From IMG/VR virus record IMGVR_UViG_2654588181_000001: a DNA stretch of 48,351 bases, one strand, 5' to 3'. Positions 11,730 to 46,297 of the stretch are shown here, piece by piece. The notes beneath the pieces are model-generated. The model did no database searches. It was not told the origin of the DNA and was given only the letters and a program-made list of their open reading frames with translations. The translations under genes were made by a program, and so were the position numbers. Positions within the stretch are counted from its first letter, which is position 1; the number at the start of each line of letters is the position of its first letter. Source of the DNA: a virus (lineage: Duplodnaviria > Heunggongvirae > Uroviricota > Caudoviricetes).

Positions 11730-12070
11730 ATCGGCATTCCTCTGTTAGTATTAACAGTGAGAGTTATTTCCAATACACCAACATTATCTGATACTTCATC
11801 AACAATATAATTTTTACCGTTGATTTTCATTGACTGGTCTTTGACAGGGAGAACAGGAAAATCTTTTCTTGAAACAAATAATATTATTTGCCCCTGATTT
11901 ATTCCCTCTGCAAACTCAGCATATGAGCGTTTATTACGCTCATGAATAAGGTCTGTATCAATAACGGCAAGGATATCCTTGCCGTCTATGTTATATGTAT
12001 CGGCAAACTCTTTTTCATTGAGGAATATTGCAGAAATATCTTGCGCTATAACCTCTTTGAAGGAGTTCAT
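11726..12070 (-). CDS. hypothetical protein (possible head-tail connector)
   Basis: 114-aa ORF, translationally coupled. Confidence 0.45.
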   Translation of the reverse strand: MNSFKEVIAQDISAIFLNEKEFADTYNIDGKDILAVIDTDLIHERNKRSYAEFAEGINQGQIILFVSRKDFPVLPVKDQSMKINGKNYIVDEVSDNVGVLEITLTVNTNRGMPI

Positions 12071-12462: not shown

Positions 12463-13506
12463 TTAAACCACCTTAGCCACCAGATAGGCATCAGCCACAC
12501 CAGGATTAGGCAGTGGAGATGACTTCATGGCAACATAACGGCCAGCCGGCTTACGAGTTACCCAGGTGTCTGGAACTCGTGGCGACTCAACAATCGTCAG
12601 AGTCTTTTCGGCGTCATCTACAAGCTCTACAGCACCATACAGCATCGTTCCTCGACCAGGAGAGCCAAAGAGGATCTTATCTTCCGGTACTAATGGTTCT
12701 GGTTTTCCTGTTTTATCATTGCGAATAAGTTCGTCGTAACCATAAAAATCGACACCTTCAAGATTGCCATAATGAGTTACGCCTTCTTCTAACTCCTTAG
12801 GCTCAATATACCCAAGCTCTTTTCGGCGATTATCAAGATATTTAGTTACTGCTTCATTTTTAACGAAGGCATCAACAACTTTTGCGCCCATTACGGCAAC
12901 ACGAGGTGTAAAACCTGAAGTTAGTGATACCCGACGTTTCCAGTTGCGAACATTGACCAACGGATCTGATTTTGCTGCGCTCCATAAATCATCACCTGTC
13001 AGTTCAAGATATGGTTTATCTCCTTCCTCTTCAGGCCAAAAATAAACTGTGTCATCCACTCCTTCACCAACAATATCAACCTGCCCCGTAAACAAGACTT
13101 GTGCACACATCCATTCTTCACGGCGGTTAACCATTTCATCAAGCTCAAGCAAATCTTTACCTAATTGCGCGGCGGCTCGTTCTGCTGGCGATTTTGCGTT
13201 GTAAATATTCTCACCCGGAAGCCTGTTTAAAAGCAGCTCGGCTGTTGTTACCAAATCAGGTGCAACAAGTGGTGGCTCCAGAGTTCTCGTTACAAAGCCG
13301 CGTCGCTCAACGGTTTTTGAGCCAAAACCTTTACCAACAAACGGAGCCATAGTACGGCCACCGCGAACAAAATCCAGATCAACTTTCTTTGTATTAAAGG
13401 TCTGAACACCAGGAAAAAAGGTACGAAGAAGAAAACGACGAGCCTTGAAATTCTGAATAACAGGCTCAAGCATTGTACGTCGTTCAAAAATATCAATATT
13501 CGGCAT
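12463..13506 (-). CDS. major capsid protein, lambda gpE-like
   Basis: 347-aa ORF; order terminase-W-portal-protease-D-E matches lambda head module. Confidence 0.8.
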   Translation of the reverse strand: MPNIDIFERRTMLEPVIQNFKARRFLLRTFFPGVQTFNTKKVDLDFVRGGRTMAPFVGKGFGSKTVERRGFVTRTLEPPLVAPDLVTTAELLLNRLPGENIYNAKSPAERAAAQLGKDLLELDEMVNRREEWMCAQVLFTGQVDIVGEGVDDTVYFWPEEEGDKPYLELTGDDLWSAAKSDPLVNVRNWKRRVSLTSGFTPRVAVMGAKVVDAFVKNEAVTKYLDNRRKELGYIEPKELEEGVTHYGNLEGVDFYGYDELIRNDKTGKPEPLVPEDKILFGSPGRGTMLYGAVELVDDAEKTLTIVESPRVPDTWVTRKPAGRYVAMKSSPLPNPGVADAYLVAKVV

Positions 13507-21095: not shown

Positions 21096-22475
21096 CTACT
21101 TAATCAACGGCCGGAAAGCCGCCAGCACATCATCAGATCGTCCGATTGTTGAACCACCAGGCAACGGCAACTCAAACTCAAAACGAACAGCTTTCTCCAG
21201 ACTCGCCCAACTAAGGGAATCATCGTTAATGACGTGCAAATACCAGCTCTTACAGTTGAATATTGACCGCTTAATCCTGAAACCATGTACACGACACAAC
21301 TGCTTCACTTCCTCATCAGAGTGAAACTTCTGGTAAAACCAGTGCCCCTTCCGGTACAACGCGGTAAAACCGTTATGATCAATAAAATAAAGCCGGCTTT
21401 TGGAACTCGCCGCTTGTGTCTGCTTCAGGACTGTTTCCAGCTCTCCACGGCTACGGCCAGAAAAGAATATTGACCCACCAGCTTTACACAGCCCTTTCAG
21501 AACCGTCAGAACGGACCATTCAGCCTCGACACTATCGACCGAGTTCAAAACGCTATCGCAAATCACGTAGTCGTAACGCCCTCGCGTTTTTAAGTCGTCC
21601 ACCAGCGTATCAATCATCCGGTTTGTTGCGGTCCTATCCAGAGTGTTTCCAGCGCCCTTACGGCGGAAAAGCTCAAGATCATGCAGGTTATATCCCTTTG
21701 CCCTGAGCATTCGCGCGTAGTCTCCCTGACCCGAACCAAAATCAATTCCTCTTGGCGTCTTGGCAATGATCGGGAGGATCAACGACTCATACAGGTTTGA
21801 TTTCAGGCTGCCACCATTACGCAACCGCATAAGCTGCGCATACGTCTGGATGTATGTTGTTTTCTCCAGATGAGAATACTCAAATACACCATAAGTTTTA
21901 TTCAGATAACTTTGGTATTTTTCCTTCTCAACATCAGGGATCACAAACACCGTTAGCGGTGTGCGCGTCATCTTCGCTGCTAATGCATACTGAGCACAGT
22001 GAATAACCTCGCCAGACTGCGTAGCAACACAACCACCCCACGGACCATACTTGATAACCAGTTCCGCTATGTTCTTTCGAACATATGCCATTTTCGCGCG
22101 CATATTGCCTGAAATCTGGCTTGCCGATACCTGAACAAAACCATGCTTATCTCCCAGACCTGACACCCTGCAACGCTCATCTCCGCTATCAAAATCCGTT
22201 CCGTTATGCAGTTGGTTAAACCGTACTTCGTCGTATACCGTCGTTTCACAGGGCAACACATACACCGCAGCACGCGTTATTCCCAACTTACGTAGCGCCT
22301 TCGTCCTTTGGTGTCCCGCCACCAGCAAATCGCCGCGCACTATCAATGGCTTCACAAGCCCCAGCTCCCTGACGCTTTCCGCCAGCCTCGCAAGATCATC
22401 CTCACCGATAAAACGCGGGTTATATTCCGCGCCGCGTAGGTGCGTTATGTCGTAATTGAGATGAAGCATCAGCAC
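21096..22475 (-). CDS. ParB-like N-terminal domain fused to SAM-dependent methyltransferase domain
   Basis: 459-aa ORF; N-terminal ParB-like segment (LVAGHQRTKALRKLG); class-I MTase motif I-like IDFGSGQGDYARML and DYVICDSVLN. Confidence 0.65.
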   Translation of the reverse strand: MLMLHLNYDITHLRGAEYNPRFIGEDDLARLAESVRELGLVKPLIVRGDLLVAGHQRTKALRKLGITRAAVYVLPCETTVYDEVRFNQLHNGTDFDSGDERCRVSGLGDKHGFVQVSASQISGNMRAKMAYVRKNIAELVIKYGPWGGCVATQSGEVIHCAQYALAAKMTRTPLTVFVIPDVEKEKYQSYLNKTYGVFEYSHLEKTTYIQTYAQLMRLRNGGSLKSNLYESLILPIIAKTPRGIDFGSGQGDYARMLRAKGYNLHDLELFRRKGAGNTLDRTATNRMIDTLVDDLKTRGRYDYVICDSVLNSVDSVEAEWSVLTVLKGLCKAGGSIFFSGRSRGELETVLKQTQAASSKSRLYFIDHNGFTALYRKGHWFYQKFHSDEEVKQLCRVHGFRIKRSIFNCKSWYLHVINDDSLSWASLEKAVRFEFELPLPGGSTIGRSDDVLAAFRPLIK

Positions 22476-23092
22476 ACCTCCCCAGCCAGCAATGCGGATA
22501 CAAATCCGATATAGCTGCCATTATCATCAACATAACGAGATACCGCGCAGTCAAAACGATCCGCTTCCTCATCCGTTGCCGGGATTTTATGACCTCCAAA
22601 TGACAGGTACTGAACTTTTACGCCTGATTTGGCCTCATCCTTCTCAAATGGGATATCCATACCCTCTGTGTCATCGTAGACCGCCGCACTCAATAAGTTA
22701 TCCAGTTCGCGCTGAGTAAAACCAATTGAGTCCAGAGCAAAATCATCGGCCGCAAGATCTGCAAGTTCCGCGCTTAACAACTCTTCATCCCAACCAGCAT
22801 TCAGCGGAATACGGTTGTCGGCCAGACGATATGCCTTCTTCTGATTCTCCGTTAGCCCTTCCAGAACAATGCAGGGAACGTCATCCATCCCCAACTGAGT
22901 GGCCGCAGCAATTCGACCATGACCAGCAATTACAACGTTGTTCTCGTCTATCAGGATCGGATTAGTCCATCCGTACTCCTGTATGCTGGCAACAATCTGA
23001 TCTACCTGCTCCACGGAGTGTGTGCGAGCGTTCTTTTCATAACCAATCAACACAGAAAGTGGTAAAGAAACCACATTAAGATGTTTTGTCAT
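22469..23092 (-). CDS. ParB-like N-terminal domain protein (paralog 2)
   Basis: 207-aa ORF; ...ILIDENNVVIAGHGRIAAA...; about half identical to 19212..19802 by eye. Confidence 0.7.
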   Translation of the reverse strand: MTKHLNVVSLPLSVLIGYEKNARTHSVEQVDQIVASIQEYGWTNPILIDENNVVIAGHGRIAAATQLGMDDVPCIVLEGLTENQKKAYRLADNRIPLNAGWDEELLSAELADLAADDFALDSIGFTQRELDNLLSAAVYDDTEGMDIPFEKDEAKSGVKVQYLSFGGHKIPATDEEADRFDCAVSRYVDDNGSYIGFVSALLAGEVC

Positions 23093-33262: not shown

Positions 33263-33774
33263 TGATGGCCCCCGTCATTTCTGGTGCTTTTCACCGTGCG
33301 GCTTCTTAAAAACCTGCCATCACGAACAACAGACACTTCTCGTTTACCCAACCTCATTTCACGGCGGTAACATTCAGAAAATGCCTCGTCCGGCATCATA
33401 TAAATGCGACGCTTCGCCTCCGTATCCAGAAGGGAACGGCTTGGGGTTACATATAAAAACGACTCATCAATAGGGACAAAACCACGAGCAAGAATTGCTG
33501 GCAGAATGCCAGGAAGAACGCAGAAAACAGCTCCACGATGCAGCAACATCTGGTACTCCATGACCTCCGTTATCCCCGTGACTACTGTTACGGTGTCACG
33601 TCTGTTACGGCTGGCAACCAGTCGCTGCACACGTCCAATTTTCTGATCTACAGATAGATGTTTGCTATCGTTATCAATATGATCGATAACAAATCCTTTA
33701 ATCGTTTGATCAAGGTAGTGCACCACCTGCGATTGAATCTGGTGATTATCACCAAAGAAGGCCAGAATCATCAT
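33259..33774 (-). CDS. hypothetical protein
   Basis: 171-aa ORF in early-right operon. Confidence 0.45.
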   Translation of the reverse strand: MMILAFFGDNHQIQSQVVHYLDQTIKGFVIDHIDNDSKHLSVDQKIGRVQRLVASRNRRDTVTVVTGITEVMEYQMLLHRGAVFCVLPGILPAILARGFVPIDESFLYVTPSRSLLDTEAKRRIYMMPDEAFSECYRREMRLGKREVSVVRDGRFLRSRTVKSTRNDGGHQ

Positions 33775-34265
33775 TCCTCAAGCCTCCCAAGTGCTGAACG
33801 CCGGGCGTTGCTAATCTCCTTATGAATCAGCTCGATATCGCTGGAATCTTTATTCTTAAGCTCCAGCACGGTAATCGCATCACGAACCTCTGAAACGGTT
33901 ACGTGTGAGTGTTTCCAGCGAGCAATGAATCGCGGACCGCGTAGATTGCAACGCTCCGCAGGCATCCCCAGCTCAGAGAAAACCGCTTTCAGCCTTGATA
34001 AGCAGTTAACAGGGAGATTCCCTTTGATCTTGTTCTGCCGAACCGATGTGCCATCGCTACGCTGGCGCTGACGTTCGGCAAAATCTGCCGCCCATTGCTG
34101 GACGTTAATCCGGCCTTCCGAATACGCCACCAGCAGCGTCAGGTTATCCGCACGAGGGAATCTCTCGAAGCGATACCAGGCACCAATCAGTGATGACGTA
34201 AAGCCAAACTTTCTGGCAACACCAATTTGGCCTCCATTTTCGTCAACCCACTCCTGAAAGGTCAT
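33771..34265 (-). CDS. HTH DNA-binding protein, Cro-position early regulator
   Basis: 164-aa ORF divergent from CI-like gene across operator-rich region; N-terminal HTH; SD GGAG upstream. Confidence 0.55.
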   Translation of the reverse strand: MTFQEWVDENGGQIGVARKFGFTSSLIGAWYRFERFPRADNLTLLVAYSEGRINVQQWAADFAERQRQRSDGTSVRQNKIKGNLPVNCLSRLKAVFSELGMPAERCNLRGPRFIARWKHSHVTVSEVRDAITVLELKNKDSSDIELIHKEISNARRSALGRLEE

Positions 34266-34284
34266 TTAACGAACTCCAGTTAAA

Positions 34285-34402
34285 ACCACGATATGTGGTA
34301 TTAAAACCACATATCGTGAGTTTTTCAATGGGCGAAACAAAAAATAACCTTCTATTTGTGGTCCACCTCTCGTCTTACCATGTGAAAACCACTAAATGTG
34401 GT
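34285..34402. promoter_or_regulatory. divergent promoter/operator region with ACCAC-N5-GTGGT operators
   Basis: ACCACGATATGTGGT (34285..34299), ACCACATATCGTG (34306..34318), GTGGTCCAC (34357..34365), ACCACTAAATGTGGT (34388..34402). Confidence 0.65.
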
Positions 34403-34439
34403 AATGTATAAATAACCCACCATTCACGATTGATGAGAC

Positions 34440-35096
34440 ATGAAAAGCAACGACGAGAACATCAAGAAAGAAATAGGTCTGCGCATTCAGACTCTACGGA
34501 AACAATCCGGCATGACTGCCGGAGATCTCCAGCAAGTCACTGGAATAGGCTTAAGCACCTTGCAGAACTATGAGGCCGGATTAAGACAACCATCTATACC
34601 TGCCATCAAGAAAATCGCGCACGCCCTAAAAGCATCAGCGCCTTACATCGCGTGCTTAACAGATAACCCGTTCCCACCCCAGAATACTAACGCTCCTGTT
34701 ATTCCTGGGCTTGTAGCTATAAAAAATGACATAGCATCGCACGCCGGAGAAAAGCCTGTGCTGGCGATAGAACAGGAGATTTTACGAAGCAAGAACATCA
34801 ACCCATCGTCTCTGTCAGTTCTCCAGAGCAACGATGAGTTAATGTCACCAACAATATCCCCTGGCTCCCAAGTCCTGATTAATACAGACGATACAGAGAT
34901 TCATGAGGGGATCTATGCCCTTGAAGACAGAAATGGCCTAGTTGTTTTGAGGCACTGTAGAGTCATACCGGGTGACAATGCTGTTATGCTGTCAACCGAA
35001 AGGGATGCTGAAATGAACACTAAGCATCTGAATAACGAGGAATTTAAGCGTTATAAAGTTCTTGGCCGCGTAGTTAGTGTTGTCAACTGGTTATGA
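34440..35096 (+). CDS. CI-like repressor (HTH plus S24/LexA-like autocleavage domain)
   Basis: 218-aa ORF; N-terminal HTH; C-terminal ELMSPTISPGSQVLIN resembles S24 Ser-nucleophile region. Confidence 0.8.
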   Translation: MKSNDENIKKEIGLRIQTLRKQSGMTAGDLQQVTGIGLSTLQNYEAGLRQPSIPAIKKIAHALKASAPYIACLTDNPFPPQNTNAPVIPGLVAIKNDIASHAGEKPVLAIEQEILRSKNINPSSLSVLQSNDELMSPTISPGSQVLINTDDTEIHEGIYALEDRNGLVVLRHCRVIPGDNAVMLSTERDAEMNTKHLNNEEFKRYKVLGRVVSVVNWL

Positions 35097-35188
35097 TACA
35101 CAGCACGGCGGAAGCCGTGCATTTCTACGCTCAAAAAAACCACATTTTGTGGTTTTGACAACATGTAAAAGTATAAAAGAGGCTACGC

Positions 35189-35563
35189 ATGGAATTACAT
35201 ACAGCCAATAAAAACGAAACTCTGATCACTGCTGGAATCGAAATCCAAGCGTTGAACATAGCGATTGAGTGTATGTTATGCCAAATCATTGATAATGAGA
35301 AAGATATCGACTGGATAGAATCTATCCTTCATCTGGCATCAGAACAAAAAGTCTGCCTCAAAACGGCCTTACAATACGATGTGCCAGCGGTATCGAAGCT
35401 GTGCCAGCCATTGATGGCATATAACAGAGCTATTATTTCTGTATGCCTCATGATTCTCGATGAAAACACCCCTCTTAGCGACCGCTCAGAAGCTGCTCTA
35501 ACCCTCTCACGTAAACAGCGACAGCTAGCAAATCAACTGATATCAACGATAGCTGACCTCTGA
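35189..35563 (+). CDS. hypothetical protein downstream of repressor (superinfection-exclusion position)
   Basis: 124-aa ORF preceded by operator-like ACCACATTTTGTGGT at 35140..35154 overlapping a TTGACA. Confidence 0.45.
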   Translation: MELHTANKNETLITAGIEIQALNIAIECMLCQIIDNEKDIDWIESILHLASEQKVCLKTALQYDVPAVSKLCQPLMAYNRAIISVCLMILDENTPLSDRSEAALTLSRKQRQLANQLISTIADL

Positions 35564-35713
35564 CTGCAAGCGGGCTAACGCCCGCTTATATGATTATAGA
35601 TTTATATAATTATATAAAACGCTTTTCATCCGCCAAAAAGTTGGTTATGCTTACCTCGTTCTATAAATATAGATTTATAGAATTATATAATCAAACACAT
35701 GGAGTCTCGACAA

Positions 35714-36367
35714 ATGACTATCTCTGTAGGTATTTTCAACGGAAAAGGTGGCGTAACCAAATCAACAATTGCCCGTGCTTTAGCAGTTGCTTATGCAAAG
35801 GCTGGCTGGAATGTATGCCTGATCGATATGGATGTGCTTAACGGAACGGTAACGCGTTGGGTACAACGCAGAATGGCCAACAATATCGAACCAGCAATCG
35901 CGGCGCAGCCGTGCGGCACACCATCACAAGTCCAGAAAATCATCGAATCAGAAGTATACGACCTGGTTATCGTTGATGGCGGTGCCTACGCATCTGAATC
36001 AGTACCGAAGCTATCTGAATTTCTGGATATGGTTATTTTGCCAACCCGATTCTCTACCGATGACCTGGAAACCACCGTTAACACTGCTCACGGCATCGTT
36101 AAAAAGGGTGTACCAATCAAGAAAATTTGCATGGTGTTTTCCGGCGCGGCTGAAAACGAAGCTGACTATATTGAAGCCCAAGAGTACCTGGCTAATACGC
36201 CATACTTTGTTGTCGATAAGTACATTCCCCACAAGCCAGCTCTGAGCAAAGCTCAGGATAAGGGCTTAAGCCTCATTGAATGCTCATACGTTGCGCCACG
36301 CAAAAAGGCAGACGACGTTATTCAGGGGATTATCAACCAGCTTGAGGCTCTGACTACTGCCGCGTAA
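35714..36367 (+). CDS. parA: ParA-family partition ATPase
   Basis: Deviant Walker A GIFNGKGGVTKST at N-terminus; ATG at 35714 with GGAG 10 nt upstream. Confidence 0.85.
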   Translation: MTISVGIFNGKGGVTKSTIARALAVAYAKAGWNVCLIDMDVLNGTVTRWVQRRMANNIEPAIAAQPCGTPSQVQKIIESEVYDLVIVDGGAYASESVPKLSEFLDMVILPTRFSTDDLETTVNTAHGIVKKGVPIKKICMVFSGAAENEADYIEAQEYLANTPYFVVDKYIPHKPALSKAQDKGLSLIECSYVAPRKKADDVIQGIINQLEALTTAA

Positions 36368-36880: not shown

Positions 36881-36903
36881 TAAAAAAGGCCCCCGAAGGG
36901 GCC
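36881..36903 (-). terminator. rho-independent terminator
   Basis: GGCCCC-CGAA-GGGGCC hairpin followed by T-run on minus strand. Confidence 0.5.
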
Positions 36904-36909
36904 TAATCG

Positions 36910-37029
36910 CTACTTGCTGCTAATGTTTATCGTCACATTCAGAGCGTTATCAGTAATCTTCCAACCCTCCCCATGTGGCGTAAACAAAGCTCCAGTAACA
37001 ACGATAAAAATACACATACAGTATTTTTT
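36910..37029 (-). CDS. small hydrophobic peptide (40 aa) with own SD and terminator
   Basis: MKKYCMCIFIVVTGALFTPHGEGW...; AAGGG 8 nt upstream of ATG; terminator immediately downstream. Confidence 0.35.
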   Translation of the reverse strand, partial: KKYCMCIFIVVTGALFTPHGEGWKITDNALNVTINISSK

Positions 37030-37785
37030 CATTGTGTGGCCCTTACAGGCCGTTTCACGGCATCCCCACCGACGAAAACAACGCGAGAGCAAGCACGGCT
37101 GCTTGTGCTTGCATGTACGGCAACAGGAAATCCTCCCCTAAAGTCGGTGCCCGGGTGCGAATCGGCGGGAAGGTCCACAGGTATTTTACGATTATTTTAA
37201 GATTAGTAATAGGAAAGAAATTAAACGAAAAAAACAGTTTATTTTCACAAAATCAGTAACCTACCCACAATCTGTGAGTTTGCTGACACAACAAGAACCA
37301 CAATTTTTTGATGTATAATAGTGGACTATTATTACCTTTTGAGTAAAATCAATTTGCTGCTTGTGCTTGCGTGGTTGTTTATACAACAACGTAATGCTGA
37401 AAGGACCGCGAATCCGATCAGCACGAAAGAACCGTCCTCAATAGGGCGGTTTTTTTGTTTCTGCCTACCAATAAACCCACGCTATGTGGTTGTCTCTGTT
37501 AAAATCCCGCCGTATTGACATGAATGCGCCATTGGTGGACACTTTCCGAGCCGTAGCAAAATCTACGGTCGGGATTAGCCTCCTGAATAACACGATGGCG
37601 CATACCGCGTTAGCGGTTTTTTTATGCGTAGAGCACTGTTACGCCCAAATTATGGTGGGTCGTACAGGGGCGGAGAAATCCGCGCCGGTTCGTCATTGTG
37701 TCCGGTAAGGCTAACCCTGTACGGCTCACCACCATTTGATTAGCCTCGAATGGCGGTGATAGTTCCATATACTGGAGATATCACA

Positions 37786-37977
37786 ATGACAAACCTACCC
37801 CATGACTATTACGTCAACCTCGTAAAGATCCTTCTCAAGAAAGCCTCATACGCCGATAAATTCCGCCTGGCTGAAATCATCGAGCGCGAAGCTATGCGCA
37901 TCGCCAGCAACGATAACGCTGTTTCTGACGCAAAAATCTCCCTCGTAACCAAAGTAGTTATGGGAGGTGCAAAATGA
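37786..37977 (+). CDS. small ORF overlapping antirepressor start (icd-like position)
   Basis: Stop overlaps ant ATG (ATGA at 37974..37977); start uncertain. Confidence 0.35.
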   Translation: MTNLPHDYYVNLVKILLKKASYADKFRLAEIIEREAMRIASNDNAVSDAKISLVTKVVMGGAK

Positions 37978-39116
37978 AAACGCTTCCGACCGTTAACACC
38001 CTACAGCCTATCCTGCATAACCAGATCCCCGTTATCACTAGTGAACTTCTGGCGCAGTTATACGGAACAAAAATCAAAAACATTTCTGATAACTTTCTGA
38101 ACAACACGACGCGATTCGTAGCCGGAAAGCATTACTTTAAAATTGAAAAAAACGAATTACGCGAGTTCAAGAACAGACCCGAAACAATCGGGTTAGTTGG
38201 TAAAAATGCCCGCTCCCTAATTCTCTGGACCGAACGCGGGGCTGCACGTCACGCTAAAATGCTCGAAACCGATCAGGCGTGGGATGTATTCGAACGGCTG
38301 GAAGACTGCTATTTCAGCCAGAACGCGCAAACGGCCGCGACCGTAACCGTCTCGCCAAACAATGCTCGTGAGGTTGTCGATACGCTCAACGCCAAACCGA
38401 TGTTTTACATTAAGGTGTGCAATAACGAGCCACTCACAACCTCAGCCGATGTTGCCCAGGCATTCAGCACCACAAACAATTCCATCGTTATGGCCATCGA
38501 TGCGCTACGCATTCCTCGCACGGCTGCGGCGCGTCACTTCTTTAAAGAGCAACGACCGTTGGAAGGAAGCGACCGCGAAATAACAATCTATCGCATGACA
38601 AAAGACGGATTTACCTTGCTCATGGAGAGCATCGACGGTCCAGGCGTGAAAGATATCAAGCTGGCCTACATTGAAGCCTTTAACGCTATCAGCAGCGTGT
38701 TAAAAACACAGTACGAGCGTGATCTGGCTAAACGACTGTACCAGGAAAAAACGATTATCCGCGCGGCAACAGAGCATAATCGGCTATTAACGGAACCGAA
38801 CTACAGGAAGGAACTAATCAAGGAGTTTGACAAGGCAACAGGGAAAACCAAAGCGGCGCTAAATCTGCCAGCAATGACTCAGGAAAATGTGATATCAGCC
38901 TTACTTCTTGATCTGCTCAGAAACGCCAGAGCACTTATCAGCTTTGACGAAAACCTGAATCCTCAGCTCAAGCTACTACCACCGACAGGCAAAGTAGTCG
39001 ACCAGGCTGATCACAACAGCATACTCAGCGTACTGGATGCAAACCTGCCAGCCAGGACACTACAGGATCTGATAAAAACATGTGCTGATAAGCTGGCACA
39101 GAAAAGCAGACCATAA
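37974..39116 (+). CDS. antirepressor (Ant-like)
   Basis: 380-aa ORF; N-terminal KilA-N/ORF6N-like segment; operator-like CCCACGCTATGTGGT upstream at 37477..37491. Confidence 0.7.
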   Translation: MKTLPTVNTLQPILHNQIPVITSELLAQLYGTKIKNISDNFLNNTTRFVAGKHYFKIEKNELREFKNRPETIGLVGKNARSLILWTERGAARHAKMLETDQAWDVFERLEDCYFSQNAQTAATVTVSPNNAREVVDTLNAKPMFYIKVCNNEPLTTSADVAQAFSTTNNSIVMAIDALRIPRTAAARHFFKEQRPLEGSDREITIYRMTKDGFTLLMESIDGPGVKDIKLAYIEAFNAISSVLKTQYERDLAKRLYQEKTIIRAATEHNRLLTEPNYRKELIKEFDKATGKTKAALNLPAMTQENVISALLLDLLRNARALISFDENLNPQLKLLPPTGKVVDQADHNSILSVLDANLPARTLQDLIKTCADKLAQKSRP

Positions 39117-39925: not shown

Positions 39926-40198
39926 TCATTTGATCCCTTGTTCCAATTCTGACGACACTTTAACCTTTTCCCATACAAGGGTTTGCAGCCTTAACAGAAT
40001 CGCGTCTTTATCAAGGTGTGAAAGATCCTTAACCATATCGTCAAATGACAGAACGCGAATGGCCATCTCAATGACCCTCGGCGGCTCCCCCTTCTCATAT
40101 CGCTTATATGTAGCCAACGATATCCCAAATTCTTCGGCGGCTCGCTCCTGCGTCCAGTTCATCCCACGACGCCATAATTTCAATTCGTAACCCGTCAT
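39926..40198 (-). CDS. XRE-family HTH regulator
   Basis: 90-aa ORF; LKLWRRGMNWTQERAAEEFGISLATYKRYEKG HTH. Confidence 0.6.
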   Translation of the reverse strand: MTGYELKLWRRGMNWTQERAAEEFGISLATYKRYEKGEPPRVIEMAIRVLSFDDMVKDLSHLDKDAILLRLQTLVWEKVKVSSELEQGIK

Positions 40199-41372: not shown

Positions 41373-41672
41373 TCAGATGTTAAACGCTATTCGTTTTCCT
41401 GTGGGAAGCTCAACATCCAGGCTTAATTTGCCTCCCATAGCTTCAACGTAACGCTTTAATGTCGCCAGCTTTAAATCATTTCCGCGCTGCTCCAGCTTTG
41501 TTACTGCTGGCTGGCTTATACCCATCGCCTCAGCAACCTGTTTTTGTGATAACTGGAGTTCTTCACGCATCATCTGCAAGCCGACCTCAAGAATCATCTC
41601 ATCTGCCATTTCTTTAATTCGCGCCTGGCTTTCAGGTGAACGGCTGGCAATCACCTCATCTAATGTTCTCAT
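41373..41672 (-). CDS. HTH antitoxin (HigA-like)
   Basis: 99-aa XRE HTH ORF; start overlaps toxin stop (ATGA). Confidence 0.65.
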   Translation of the reverse strand: MRTLDEVIASRSPESQARIKEMADEMILEVGLQMMREELQLSQKQVAEAMGISQPAVTKLEQRGNDLKLATLKRYVEAMGGKLSLDVELPTGKRIAFNI

Positions 41673-42019
41673 TACTTGCTCTCCAGTGTGTTCAGATGTG
41701 CTGCAAACTCATCCTCAGCTATACGCACCAGTTTTTTATAAAACCGCTTATCGTTACTTTTGTCTCCTGCACAAAGAACGATGGCCCGGCGAATCGGATC
41801 GAACGCATAAAAGGCTCTTATCGGACGGCCAGAAAACTGAACGCGAAGCTCTTTCATATTTTTGTACCGAGAACCTTTTACGGTATCGGCATATGGCCTG
41901 GGTAACTCAGGTCCGTAAACCTGTAGATTTTTCAAATCAGCCAAAACCTTTTCCTGAAGAGCGTCTTCTTGCTCATTTAGCCAGTCGTCAAATCGCTGGC
42001 TAAAAAGTACCGTCCACAT
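41672..42019 (-). CDS. RelE/ParE-superfamily toxin (HigB-like)
   Basis: Start at ATG 42019 (MWTVLFSQRFDDWL...); ...ELRVQFSGRPIRAFYAFDPIRRAIVLCAGDKS pattern; upstream inverted TATAACC repeats. Confidence 0.65.
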   Translation of the reverse strand: MWTVLFSQRFDDWLNEQEDALQEKVLADLKNLQVYGPELPRPYADTVKGSRYKNMKELRVQFSGRPIRAFYAFDPIRRAIVLCAGDKSNDKRFYKKLVRIAEDEFAAHLNTLESK

Positions 42020-42263
42020 GCTCAATCCTATAACCTGTAGTTTATACCACTGACTATATAACCCGTAGGTTATAATTTCAAGAAAAACGGGGCTATTTAA
42101 CATAATGGACGTTATCGGCACCACCGGATCACCGTTCATTGTCGGATCTAAAAAATCCGCTCAAAAGATCATGTTTTCCTGGGCGTTTTCCACCGTTTTT
42201 TATGTTGCTTATTTGTTAATGAAATCTCGTTTTCAGTTTCGCCTCATTTTCGACGCGAAAGCC

Positions 42264-43481: not shown

Positions 43482-44330
43482 TTAATGTTGGAGTGATTTC
43501 CAGGTCTTTCTTAACCTGTTATAACGCTGCTCAACGAGGGATCGTAAATATGCAAGGTCAGCTCCAGGATACATGCCATCAGCAAATTCCTGGCTAACCT
43601 CTCTAGTGATTTGATGACGAAGTTCGGCCTCTCCCTTTTCCCGAACAAGACGCGCAGCTCTCTCCGCTGCTTTCTGTTTTGCCTTTATCTCTCTGGCCGT
43701 CTTCCTCTGACGCCATACATTCTCCATCTGCTCCTGAATAACAATACGCTTATAATCAGCCTCCGTTATCGCTTTTTTAAGCCGTTCGCTATTCTTCGCA
43801 TTGAAGTAATTAAGTTTCTGGCTAACCGCACGTCTCCATGCTTGTTCAGTAATACCAACGGTTTCCAGCAGTTGATCACGAATCTCTATTTTCGCTGGCC
43901 AATACTGTTTATTCACCCGATCCCAGCGACGTTCATAATCAATAAAACCTAACGCTTTCAGTTGCGACAACGCCCTTGTACAGCGTGTTATAGACTTGTT
44001 CCCAGCTTCGGATACGGTAGACAGGCCGCAAAAATCAGCCAACGCCTCAGCACTGGCCAGAACCCGCTTAGAAATGATGTTTACATGGTGCAAAATCGCA
44101 GCAATCACAGCATTAATCGCCCGACGACGATGCTCGTTTATCCGACGCTTCCGCTCTGACGGTTGATTAACGTAGAACGCAACCTCACACGTAAGATCAC
44201 GACCATTAATGCGCTGTAAAGCATCAGATAACACCAGCGGCAGCTTGTGCGTATGGTGCTTTGGAGGCTGGAACTCCGGCGACAAATTACAAACGTAAGC
44301 TGAACGTAGAGACGGCATTGGTCTATCCAT
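43482..44330 (-). CDS. repA: plasmid replication initiator, IncFII RepA-family
   Basis: ...GLSTVSEAGNKSITRCTRALSQLKALGFIDYE... resembles IncFII RepA1 core as recalled; start uncertain (TTG 44360, ATG 44330 or 44318). Confidence 0.75.
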   Translation of the reverse strand: MDRPMPSLRSAYVCNLSPEFQPPKHHTHKLPLVLSDALQRINGRDLTCEVAFYVNQPSERKRRINEHRRRAINAVIAAILHHVNIISKRVLASAEALADFCGLSTVSEAGNKSITRCTRALSQLKALGFIDYERRWDRVNKQYWPAKIEIRDQLLETVGITEQAWRRAVSQKLNYFNAKNSERLKKAITEADYKRIVIQEQMENVWRQRKTAREIKAKQKAAERAARLVREKGEAELRHQITREVSQEFADGMYPGADLAYLRSLVEQRYNRLRKTWKSLQH

Positions 44331-44344
44331 ATGTTCGCTCTTGC

Positions 44345-44457
44345 GTCCACGGAAAACCAACGTATAATGGGAGTTGTCGAGGCGCCCATGGTTAATTGGT
44401 TGTTGGTTTTCCGTGGATGTCGCAAGAAGCCCGCAGATTTATCTGCGGGCTTTTTGT
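44345..44457 (+). ncRNA. candidate countertranscript (CopA-like antisense RNA)
   Basis: Plus-strand 15-bp-stem hairpin (44347..44361 / 44403..44417) plus intrinsic terminator GCCCGCAGA-TTTAT-CTGCGGGC-TTTTT (44428..44457), antisense to repA leader. Confidence 0.35.
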
Positions 44458-44644
44458 TTCCATATCTGGTCATTTTCCAACCAGACACCCACAATCATAA
44501 CCACGTTACGTGGTTTTAAGAGAACTCTACCACAACACTTTCGGTCATGCACGAAGTCTCTCACTGATCGAACGATAATCCACCAGTAAAAGGATCTAAA
44601 TTGGATCTCGTTTTGCGAGCATCATACTACTGGCCTAACTCCAG

Positions 44645-45199
44645 TCAATGATTCCCAGCCGGAAACCTGCGGTAAAGCGTGGATAAGGTAACATCGAAGA
44701 TAATCGCTATCCGCTTACGTGAAACACCATTCGCAATAAGCCTTCCGATCTGTTCCCATTGCTCTGGGGCCAATTTTGAGCGGCGTCCTCCTATCCTGCC
44801 ATTAGCCCTTGCCACCGCCAATCCTGCACGCGTTCTTTCAATCATATTTTCCCGCTCCATCTCTGCGACTGCACTCAGCATCGTGTAGGCAAAGCGGCCA
44901 ATTGAAGTGCTAATTTTTATCCCTTCCGTAATCGAAATAAACTCAATGTTGTTTGATAAAAAATGGTTAAGTAAATCAACAAGATGAATCAGAGAACGCC
45001 CCATTCGATCCAGCTTCCAGACAATAACCGTATCGCCCGGCCGTAACACCTTCAGTAGCTTATCAAGCCCTGGTCGTTTTGATTTAGCACCGGATATTTT
45101 ATCTTCAAAAATCCGGTCACATCCTGAACTCCTGAGCGCCTCCAGTTGTAATTCCAAATTCTGGTCAAAAGTTGACACCCTCGCATAACCATATTGCAT
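44645..45199 (-). CDS. serine DNA invertase (Gin/Cin/Pin/Hin family)
   Basis: 184-aa ORF; N-terminal YARVSTFDQ with catalytic Ser, C-terminal HTH; adjacent to inverted repeat. Confidence 0.9.
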   Translation of the reverse strand: MQYGYARVSTFDQNLELQLEALRSSGCDRIFEDKISGAKSKRPGLDKLLKVLRPGDTVIVWKLDRMGRSLIHLVDLLNHFLSNNIEFISITEGIKISTSIGRFAYTMLSAVAEMERENMIERTRAGLAVARANGRIGGRRSKLAPEQWEQIGRLIANGVSRKRIAIIFDVTLSTLYRRFPAGNH

Positions 45200-45297: not shown

Positions 45298-46297
45298 CAA
45301 GGCTGGTAACGCCGTGCAAAAGACAGGCGATACCTTGTCCGGTGGACTTACTTTTGAAAACGACTCAATTCTTGCATGGATTCGAAATACCGACTGGGCA
45401 AAGATTGGATTTAAAAATGATGCCGACAGCGATACTGATTCATACATGTGGTTTGAAACAGGCGACAACGGCAATGAATATTTCAAATGGAGAAGCAAAC
45501 AAAGCACCACAACAAAAGACCTGATGAATCTTAAATGGGATGCTTTGTCTGTTCTTGTTAAAGCCCTTTTCAGCAGTGAAGTAAAAATATCGACAGTCAA
45601 TGCACTGAGGATATTTAATTCATCTTTTGGTGCCATTTTTCGTCGTTCTGAAGAATGCCTGCATATCATCCCTACACGAGAGAATGAGGGGGAAAATGGT
45701 GATATAGGGCCACTACGCCCCTTTACGCTTAATCTCAGAACAGGTCGCATAACTATGGGGCATGGTCTGGATGTTACAGGAGATATATTTACAAACCGTT
45801 TTTTAATTAACAGCAGTACAGGCATGTGGATTCATATGCGTGACCAGAACGTTATTATGGGACGTAATGCGGTATCCACTGATGGTGCTCAGGCATTGCT
45901 TCGTCAGGACCATGCCGACCGCAAGTTCATGATAGGTGGATTGGGAAATAAGCAATTTGGCATCTACATGATTAATAACTCAAGGACAGCCAATGGCACC
46001 GATGGTCAGGCGTACATGGATAATAACGGGAATTGGCTTTGCGGCTCGCAAGTTATTCCCGGCAACTATGGCAATTTTGATTCCAGATATGTGAAAGATG
46101 TTCGACTTGGTTCACAGCAATATTATGGAGTGAACAACTGGCAAACATGGAATTTCCAGTGCCCGTCAGGTCATGTATTGTCTGGTATTAATGTTCAGGA
46201 TACAGGGTCCAACTCTGCCGATAATATAGCGGGCGTTTATTACAGACCCGTTCAAAAGTATATAAATGGCACCTGGTATAATGTAGCGAGCGTTTAA
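45273..46297 (+). CDS. alternative tail-fibre C-terminal cassette (silent in this orientation)
   Basis: Open frame through the left repeat (…[25 protein letters not shown]…) with no upstream start; becomes fused to the constant part after inversion. Confidence 0.7.

Follow-up and report, generated by a model that had tools for sequence, protein, structure and literature searches.

Does the CI-type repressor gene of this element serve a local divergent switch, or does its product act on distant genes as well, and how is the repressor inactivated? An initial annotation of the intergenic region 34266-34439 had described a CI/Cro-type switch with ACCAC-N5-GTGGT operators that recur at two other promoters, and had taken the C-terminal domain of CI to imply RecA-stimulated autocleavage and SOS induction. 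The window (the whole stretch of 48,351 nucleotides that was analysed) contains structural genes for terminase, portal, capsid, sheath and tape-measure proteins, as well as the plasmid genes for ParA and an IncFII-type RepA. Near-identical database records are circular. From the combination of sheath, tape-measure and capsid genes with ParA and IncFII RepA we conclude that the window is a circular E. coli phage-plasmid with a myovirus-type virion module.

A 2-kb region around the switch shows 99% identity to three phages propagated on Yersinia pestis (vB_YpM_39/41/44) and 95-99.5% identity to 58 PLSDB entries, which are circular and non-mobilizable E. coli plasmids with lengths of 46-50 kb. 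The phage-plasmid family was found in 71 of 5,426 complete E. coli genomes, nearly always plasmid-borne, and also in Citrobacter, Klebsiella (K. aerogenes), Salmonella and Yokenella; its infectious virions were isolated on Y. pestis. Literature searches retrieved no description of this family, and the elements of an ETEC phage-plasmid study are of the P1 and SSU5 types, other than the one considered here. The major capsid protein (12463-13506, minus strand) is 45% identical to that of Vibrio phage vB_VpaM_R19R, and the closest phage homologues of CI outside the family are likewise from Vibrio phages (26-30% identity). These similarities suggest a distant link between the enterobacterial phage-plasmid family and Vibrio myophages.

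Palindromic sites and the divergent switch

The sequence ACCACNNNNNGTGGT has four perfect matches in the window (O1, O3, Od and Orep in the list below). The number expected in 48 kb is 0.01, and none of 100 shuffled sequences reached four. One further copy carries one mismatch (Oant) and another carries two (O2). All six sites are intergenic, and their extended consensus reads aAAACCAC(R)NNN(Y)GTGGTTTt. The putative operators and the features around the switch are:

33771-34265, minus strand: first gene of the leftward early operon, in the 'Cro position' (ORF, 164 aa; PHROG 7452)
34285-34299: operator O1, ACCACGATATGTGGT, perfect; lies over the region where transcription from the leftward promoter PL would start
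34300-34328, minus strand: predicted early lytic promoter PL, with -35 TTGAAA (34323-34328), a 17-bp spacer that includes O2, and -10 TTTAAT (34300-34305)
34306-34320: operator O2, ACCACATATCGTGAG, two mismatches; within the PL spacer, 21 bp centre-to-centre from O1
34347-34362: conserved block with a single good half-site, ACCTTCTATTTGTGGT; 12 of 16 columns invariant in seven relatives
34388-34402: operator O3, ACCACTAAATGTGGT, perfect; overlaps an extended -10-like TGGTAAnGT (34399-34407) before cI
34440-35096, plus strand: CI-like repressor, 218 aa, HTH_3 and an S24-like C-terminal domain that is degenerate and has no Ser/Lys dyad
35103-35128, plus strand: terminator-like hairpin after cI; a full T-run follows in relatives
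35139-35153: operator Od, ACCACATTTTGTGGT, perfect; follows the cI terminator and precedes the 124-aa gene
35189-35563, plus strand: gene downstream of Od (ORF, 124 aa; PHROG 7632)
37476-37490: operator Oant, CCCACGCTATGTGGT, one mismatch; upstream of an extended -10-like TGTTAAAAT (37497-37505)
44500-44514: operator Orep, ACCACGTTACGTGGT, perfect; in the predicted repA promoter region

That the ACCAC-N5-GTGGT palindromes are real is borne out by the four perfect copies against 0.01 expected and by the conservation of their half-sites in relatives. The number in the switch region had to be revised: in place of four intergenic palindromes there are three full operators (O1-O3) and the half-site block at 34347-34362, while the ACCCACC...ACGA stretch at about 34414-34430 is not conserved in relatives. 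Copies of the operator do recur after cI and ahead of the antirepressor module, and relatives have them in the corresponding places. The coordinates given for these two sites (35140..35154 and 37477..37491) were one base too high, and the second carries a mismatch. A third distal site, the perfect copy before repA, had been overlooked. Two degenerate operator-like sites (one and two mismatches) are found at 23049-23084, 21 bp apart like O1 and O2, inside the first codons of a ParB/Srx-like gene (22469-23092, minus strand); they may be due to chance or represent a weak extra target.

Conservation was analysed in seven family members from Citrobacter, Klebsiella aerogenes, Yokenella and Salmonella, the CI proteins of which are 60-66% identical. 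Their contigs belong to the same phage-plasmid family, the complete ones being 46-49 kb long. In the seven aligned intergenic regions, 28 of the 30 half-site columns of O1-O3 are invariant; among spacer columns the figure is 3 of 15, and among the remaining intergenic columns it is 55 of 129. The O1-O2 spacing is 21 bp in every relative and the O2-O3 spacing 82-83 bp. Od is present in all seven, 751-759 bp from O3. Orep is kept, with different spacers, in each relative whose locus extends to repA (L004-L007 and L011), and a one-mismatch Oant occurs at the same aligned position in four family members, including L007, L010 and L011.

Among these 60-66% identical homologues, the HTH of CI (residues 9-75) is almost invariant. 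As HTH and half-sites are both invariant in all relatives, the comparison yields conservation only and no co-variation linking CI to the sites. Hetero-immune relatives, which would allow a co-variation test, were sought and none was found: all CI homologues retrieved share the same HTH, tblastn with the DUF3560 protein led mostly to unrelated conjugative plasmids, and a capsid protein search reached only distant Vibrio myophages. We regard the palindromes as conserved binding sites of the lysogeny repressor, with CI as the presumed binder.

The divergent organization of a CI gene and an early lytic operon was upheld, the operators being superimposed on the lytic promoter and conserved in relatives. 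The PL pattern TTGnnn-17-TTTAA(T/A) is found in seven of seven family members, each with O2 filling the spacer. With O2 in the PL spacer and O1 over the start region, the predicted geometry is the classical one for repression of an early leftward operon. The TGGTAAnGT motif overlapped by O3 is conserved and lies 33 bp upstream of the cI start, which suggests autoregulation of cI from this putative promoter. All promoters described here are predictions from consensus and conservation, and a promoter scan of the window reported none of them. A hairpin formed by O1 and O2, scored by a scan as a terminator (13-14 bp, both strands), was rejected, the spacers not being complementary in L004 or L007. 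Judged from these relatives, the 14-bp O1/O2 hairpin is peculiar to the lineage of the window and is not the conserved feature.

The 164-aa gene had been assigned to the Cro position, and this is correct in that it is the first gene of the leftward early operon. Its product has no match in Pfam, NCBIfam, PADLOC or PDB; the sole PHROGs match, PHROG 7452, is a family without assigned function. Homologues are confined to this phage-plasmid group (71-99% identity), and the N-terminus is highly conserved. The AF2 model is poor (pLDDT 56), with five predicted helices and an HTH-like pattern by eye. Alignment of the 164-aa family profile with the CI family profile by hhalign revealed no similarity.

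The site after cI had been described as overlapping a TTGACA hexamer upstream of the 124-aa gene, which the repressor would then also control. The hexamer (35155-35160) in fact abuts the 15-mer, is absent in relatives and has no -10 at 16-18 bp; it was rejected as a promoter element, and control of the 124-aa gene from it is not supported. Neither the scan nor the alignment of the relatives gave a convincing promoter in the stretch that separates the 124-aa gene from the cI terminator. The PHROGs match of the 124-aa protein, PHROG 7632, is a family without assigned function, and neither this protein nor a 171-aa protein has a match in Pfam, NCBIfam or PADLOC. AT-rich repeats, TATAGATTTATA(T/G)AATTATATAA, are located at 35580-35700 upstream of parA (35699-36367) and are likely to be the partition site or a par operator.

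Distal sites at the antirepressor and replication genes

The antirepressor module downstream of Oant consists of the following elements:

37515-37543, plus strand: second, operator-free promoter of the module, TTGACA-17-GACACT
37550-37623, plus strand: isrK-like leader (Rfam 65.7 bits; gathering threshold 50)
37648-37736, plus strand: C4 antisense RNA (Rfam RF01695, 70.8 bits; gathering threshold 45)
from 37786, plus strand: 63-aa ORF in icd position, its stop overlapping the start of the antirepressor gene
37974-39116, plus strand: ORF6N/Rha antirepressor gene (antirepressor family matches)

Oant is located 6 bp upstream of the extended -10-like motif (TGTTAAAAT here, TGGTAGATT in relatives). 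The predicted start of the operator-free promoter coincides with the 5' end of the isrK-like RNA at 37550, and both RNAs are also found in relatives. The loop sequence GTCATTGTG of C4 is complementary to CACAATGAC, which spans the ATG (37786) of the 63-aa ORF. A second C4 segment, AGGCTAA, is complementary to TTAGCCT at 37575 in the leader and at 37740, just after C4. As far as these pairings and the gene order predict, the arrangement of isrK-like RNA, C4 RNA, small ORF and ORF6N/Rha gene is the immI design of P1.

Oant is absent from the L004-type relatives, in which the upstream junction differs; repressor control of the antirepressor would therefore not be universal. L004, L005 and L006 (12220-12780) have neither Oant nor the upstream promoter, the antirepressor module being joined directly to the preceding 60-aa ORF, and L005 is also without the isrK-like leader. 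From these gaps we conclude that the antirepressor module is mosaic within the family.

The surroundings of the module contain further candidate RNA and toxin-antitoxin genes. A strong ryfA-family RNA match (140 bits) lies at 36882-37178 on the minus strand, the same strand as a short hydrophobic ORF. A divergent short transcript (37380-37456, plus strand) ends in a conserved terminator immediately before Oant, and the two together look like a type I toxin-antitoxin system (timP/timR-like) on the phage-plasmid. On the other side, a RelE/ParE (Gp49)-type toxin and an HTH antitoxin are encoded at 41373-42139 (minus strand; annotated as HigB2 in the record of the Yersinia phage). Nearby, 39926-40198 (minus strand) encodes a further HTH_3 protein of 90 aa, which could be a second regulator.

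The third distal site belongs to the plasmid replicon, for which these elements were found:

43482-44360, minus strand: IncFII-type repA (PF02387, 150 bits)
44341-44456, plus strand: predicted countertranscript directed at the repA leader; promoter TTGCGT-16-TATAAT, a terminator and two hairpins
44494-44532, minus strand: candidate repA promoter elements flanking Orep, an invariant extended -10 TGGTAGAGT (44524-44532) and TATGAT (44494-44499)

In a near-identical plasmid, PGAP labels the gene product 'plasmid replication initiator RepA'. Orep is about 140 bp upstream of repA and would overlap the repA core promoter whichever of the flanking elements is used. The predicted countertranscript, of about 82 nt, recurs in relatives and has a folding energy of -39 kcal/mol (z = -5.7); an Rfam search of the repA leader gave no CopA-like family at the E-value threshold. 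Repression of repA by the phage repressor would have to be partial, because the plasmid must replicate in lysogens. Directly upstream of the repA promoter region, a resolvase/invertase gene is found beside tail-fibre genes (44645-45199, minus strand, and 45314-46297, plus strand), an arrangement that suggests a Cin/Gin-like host-range switch.

Taken from the positions of the sites, one repressor probably controls the early lytic promoter, its own gene, one of the promoters of the antirepressor operon and repA.

The CI repressor and competing explanations

The N-terminal HTH of CI matches HTH_3 (43 bits) and HTH_31 (37.6 bits), both over the cut-off. The C-terminal part remains below threshold for Peptidase_S24 (PF00717; 18.4 bits against a cut-off of 23.3, E = 0.0018). 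A phmmer search with residues 95-218 against 1.8 billion representative proteins identified remote S24-type repressors (E = 1e-10 to 1e-3). The catalytic columns were read from an alignment of 58 sequences, which included 49 remote homologues together with reference sequences of LexA and lambda CI. In the column of the catalytic Ser (LexA S119, lambda CI S149), CI has Leu134, with Ser in 39 of the 58 sequences; in that of the catalytic Lys (LexA K156, lambda CI K192), it has Arg171, with Lys in 36 of 58. Both Leu134 and Arg171 are invariant across the CI family. Ala-Gly is found at CI residues 102-103, and several of ten aligned homologues have SG, gaps, GS or DT instead. Against PDB sequences, CI by itself and the profile of its family aligned with HTH domains only and with no S24 domain, and the AF2 model (pLDDT 61) is too poor to confirm the C-terminal fold.

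The proposal that the S24-like domain confers RecA-stimulated autocleavage fails on these data: S24 similarity is sub-threshold, Ala-Gly is not conserved, and the alignment has Leu and Arg at the very positions of the catalytic Ser and Lys by which the initial annotation had wanted the proposal judged. SOS induction via CI cleavage likewise finds no support, and LexA-box scans detected none in the cI, ant or repA regulatory regions. The sole perfect LexA-box core in the window, CTGT-N8-ACAG (CTGTTAGTATTAACAG, 11742-11757), is inside a head/tail structural gene and probably a chance match. Since the Ser/Lys dyad is gone, induction should not occur by RecA-stimulated self-cleavage; it would most likely take place via the ORF6N/Rha antirepressor. 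For annotation in general, an S24-like domain alone is not equivalent to SOS-inducible autocleavage.

The explanation that we consider best for the whole, and likely to be right, is a regulon of a non-cleavable CI that covers the lytic promoter, cI, the antirepressor and repA and is induced by the antirepressor. A CI dimer would bind the 15-21-bp palindromes aAAACCAC-N5-GTGGTTTt, and its dead S24-like C-terminus would serve oligomerization. O1 and O2, 21 bp apart, bracket the -10 of PL and would shut off the lytic operon, whereas O3, over the likely cI promoter, would mediate autoregulation. Of the two promoters of the antirepressor module, the upstream one would have its -35 region covered by the weaker Oant. 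Od may either repress the 124-aa gene or act as an auxiliary looping site. Orep on the repA promoter, upstream of a CopA-like countertranscript, would tie copy number and lytic replication to lysogeny, a coupling to the lysogenic state like that by CB in N15 and phiKO2. Induction would follow from binding of the antirepressor to CI. The sites with their enrichment and conservation, the loss of the catalytic residues and the assignment of RNAs and proteins to families are observations; that CI binds the sites, where the promoters lie, in which direction regulation works and how induction takes place are the parts of this model that we infer.

Several other readings of the same sites were weighed. 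The distal matches could be chance or non-regulatory sequence such as hairpins or terminators, as the terminator-like scoring of O1 and O2 on both strands might indicate, but only the lineage of the window has the long O1/O2 hairpin, 0.01 perfect matches are expected, and the positions are conserved with variable spacers in diverged relatives; we attach almost no weight to this reading. The palindromes could also be bound mainly, or in addition, by the 164-aa product as a Cro-like protein, in which case the distal sites would belong to the lytic programme and not to repression in the lysogen. Lambda-type switches do have operators common to Cro and CI, and the highly conserved, HTH-like N-terminus and the five predicted helices of the 164-aa protein would fit. 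However, no family or structure match indicates an HTH in this protein, palindromic 5-N5-5 sites suit an HTH_3 dimer such as CI, and the Cro proteins of phiKO2, PY54 and probably N15 bind one operator only and not the repA sites (PMC4997575). We therefore regard a Cro-like binder as unlikely. For Od, looping to O1-O3 about 750 bp away, which would strengthen repression or autoregulation as do lambda OL-OR or the flanking sites of phage 186, is a real possibility, if distinctly short of an even one. Od is perfect and fully conserved beside cI in all seven relatives, no sigma-70-like promoter was recognized from the cI terminator to the 124-aa gene, the TTGACA is not conserved, and OL of N15 has the corresponding position directly after cB. 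On the other hand, OL in that position does control its downstream gene, repA, and a weak conserved TAAAGT-like -10 may exist near Od.

A directly SOS-inducible prophage with a lambda-type CI, cleaved through its S24 domain with the help of RecA, would be consistent with the weak Peptidase_S24 match, with the homology of the C-terminal domain to S24-type repressors, most of which have Ser and Lys, and with the Ala-Gly at residues 102-103. We nevertheless hold it to be very improbable: in addition to the invariant Leu134 and Arg171, the match below gathering threshold and the variable Ala-Gly position, the element has an antirepressor module, the usual alternative route. The non-cleavable CI with antirepressor-driven induction remains the preferred reading.

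Comparison with known systems

The CB repressors of N15 and phiKO2 have no Ser/Lys and no RecA cleavage site; CB binds three OR sites and, at the repA promoter, two OL sites, by which copy number is lowered (PMC4997575). For induction N15 uses an antirepressor, AntC, and its immA locus is under RNA control (PMC4488713). The element studied here resembles N15 and phiKO2 as a plasmid prophage whose repressor combines an HTH with a LexA-like C-terminus without Ser/Lys and cleavage site. Three operators separate the repressor gene from the divergent early gene, and operators in this region and at the repA promoter are conserved here, their binding being predicted. Further parallels to N15 are an operator directly downstream of the repressor gene (OL right after cB in the N15 annotation) and induction by an antirepressor, presumed here, next to a separate RNA-controlled anti-immunity locus. 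The two systems differ in sequence and in genome organization. CI and N15 CB share 24% identity over 165 aligned residues starting in the HTH (E = 7e-5), and the operator is ACCAC-N5-GTGGT instead of the 16-bp TA-N10-TA type. The circular genome with an IncFII-type RepA and a countertranscript contrasts with the linear N15, which has a protelomerase and a large RepA. Here repA is 9 kb from cI and has its own single operator, the virion module is of the myovirus type, and the LexA-box scans revealed no equivalent of a LexA-controlled antC.

The C1 operators of P1 are dispersed over the genome, repL having one of them, and Ant is repressed by c4 RNA (PMC8546580). P1 and P7 share with the present element a C4-family RNA before the antirepressor operon, which is complementary to the leader and to the beginning of a small ORF overlapping the antirepressor gene, and dispersed repressor operators (putative here) of which one is at a replication gene. 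Oant may correspond to the operator of the primary repressor that is found in P1 at one of two tandem promoters. In contrast, C1 controls the lytic replicon repL and not a plasmid repA, the antirepressor here is of the ORF6N/Rha type, and about six sites compare with 22 in P1. C1 belongs to a different protein family and recognizes asymmetric 17-bp operators.

Lambda is similar with respect to the divergent repressor and early lytic genes, the multiple palindromic operators over the lytic promoter, the adjacent pair of sites spaced for cooperative binding, the further site beyond cI and the order of HTH and S24-like domain. Unlike lambda CI, the repressor here has no Ser/Lys dyad and so no autocleavage, the first lytic gene encodes 164 aa without detectable Cro homology, and operators, with predicted control, are also found at plasmid replication and antirepressor genes. 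In Gifsy phages, antirepressors inactivate the repressors and no cleavage takes place (PMC3121763). A non-cleavable repressor with a separately encoded antirepressor is common to Gifsy, phage 186 and the present element, but the antirepressors of the first two are LexA-controlled, whereas the LexA-box scans of the regulatory regions were negative here and CI and C4 RNA apparently exert the control.

The replicon itself is related to those of the IncFII plasmids R1 and R100 by a RepA of PF02387 and a predicted stem-loop countertranscript in the leader. In R1, a promoter upstream of repA is repressed by the CopB protein, an arrangement with which Orep may be compared. Here, a predicted phage-repressor operator occupies the promoter; no copB was identified (there was no systematic search), and Rfam gave no CopA match. 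By these analogies the system would work like those of N15 and P1, its closest analogues, more than like that of lambda, and it is a member of neither family.

It is conceivable, and we propose tentatively as a little less than an even prospect, that a single regulon of a non-cleavable CI joins a lambda-like switch, a P1-like C4/antirepressor module and an IncFII replicon, the repressor replacing CopB at repA. These three modules are usually studied in separate model systems. If the proposal is true, replication, synthesis of the antirepressor and lytic transcription would all rise at once on derepression, with induction independent of the SOS response or linked to it only indirectly. As N15 and P1 already exhibit the regulatory logic, the conceptual gain is modest. 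The regulon map offers direct experimental targets, namely the coupling of copy number to lysogeny, the inducer and the homo-immunity of family members, and on the last of these the invariance of HTH and operators across genera has a bearing.
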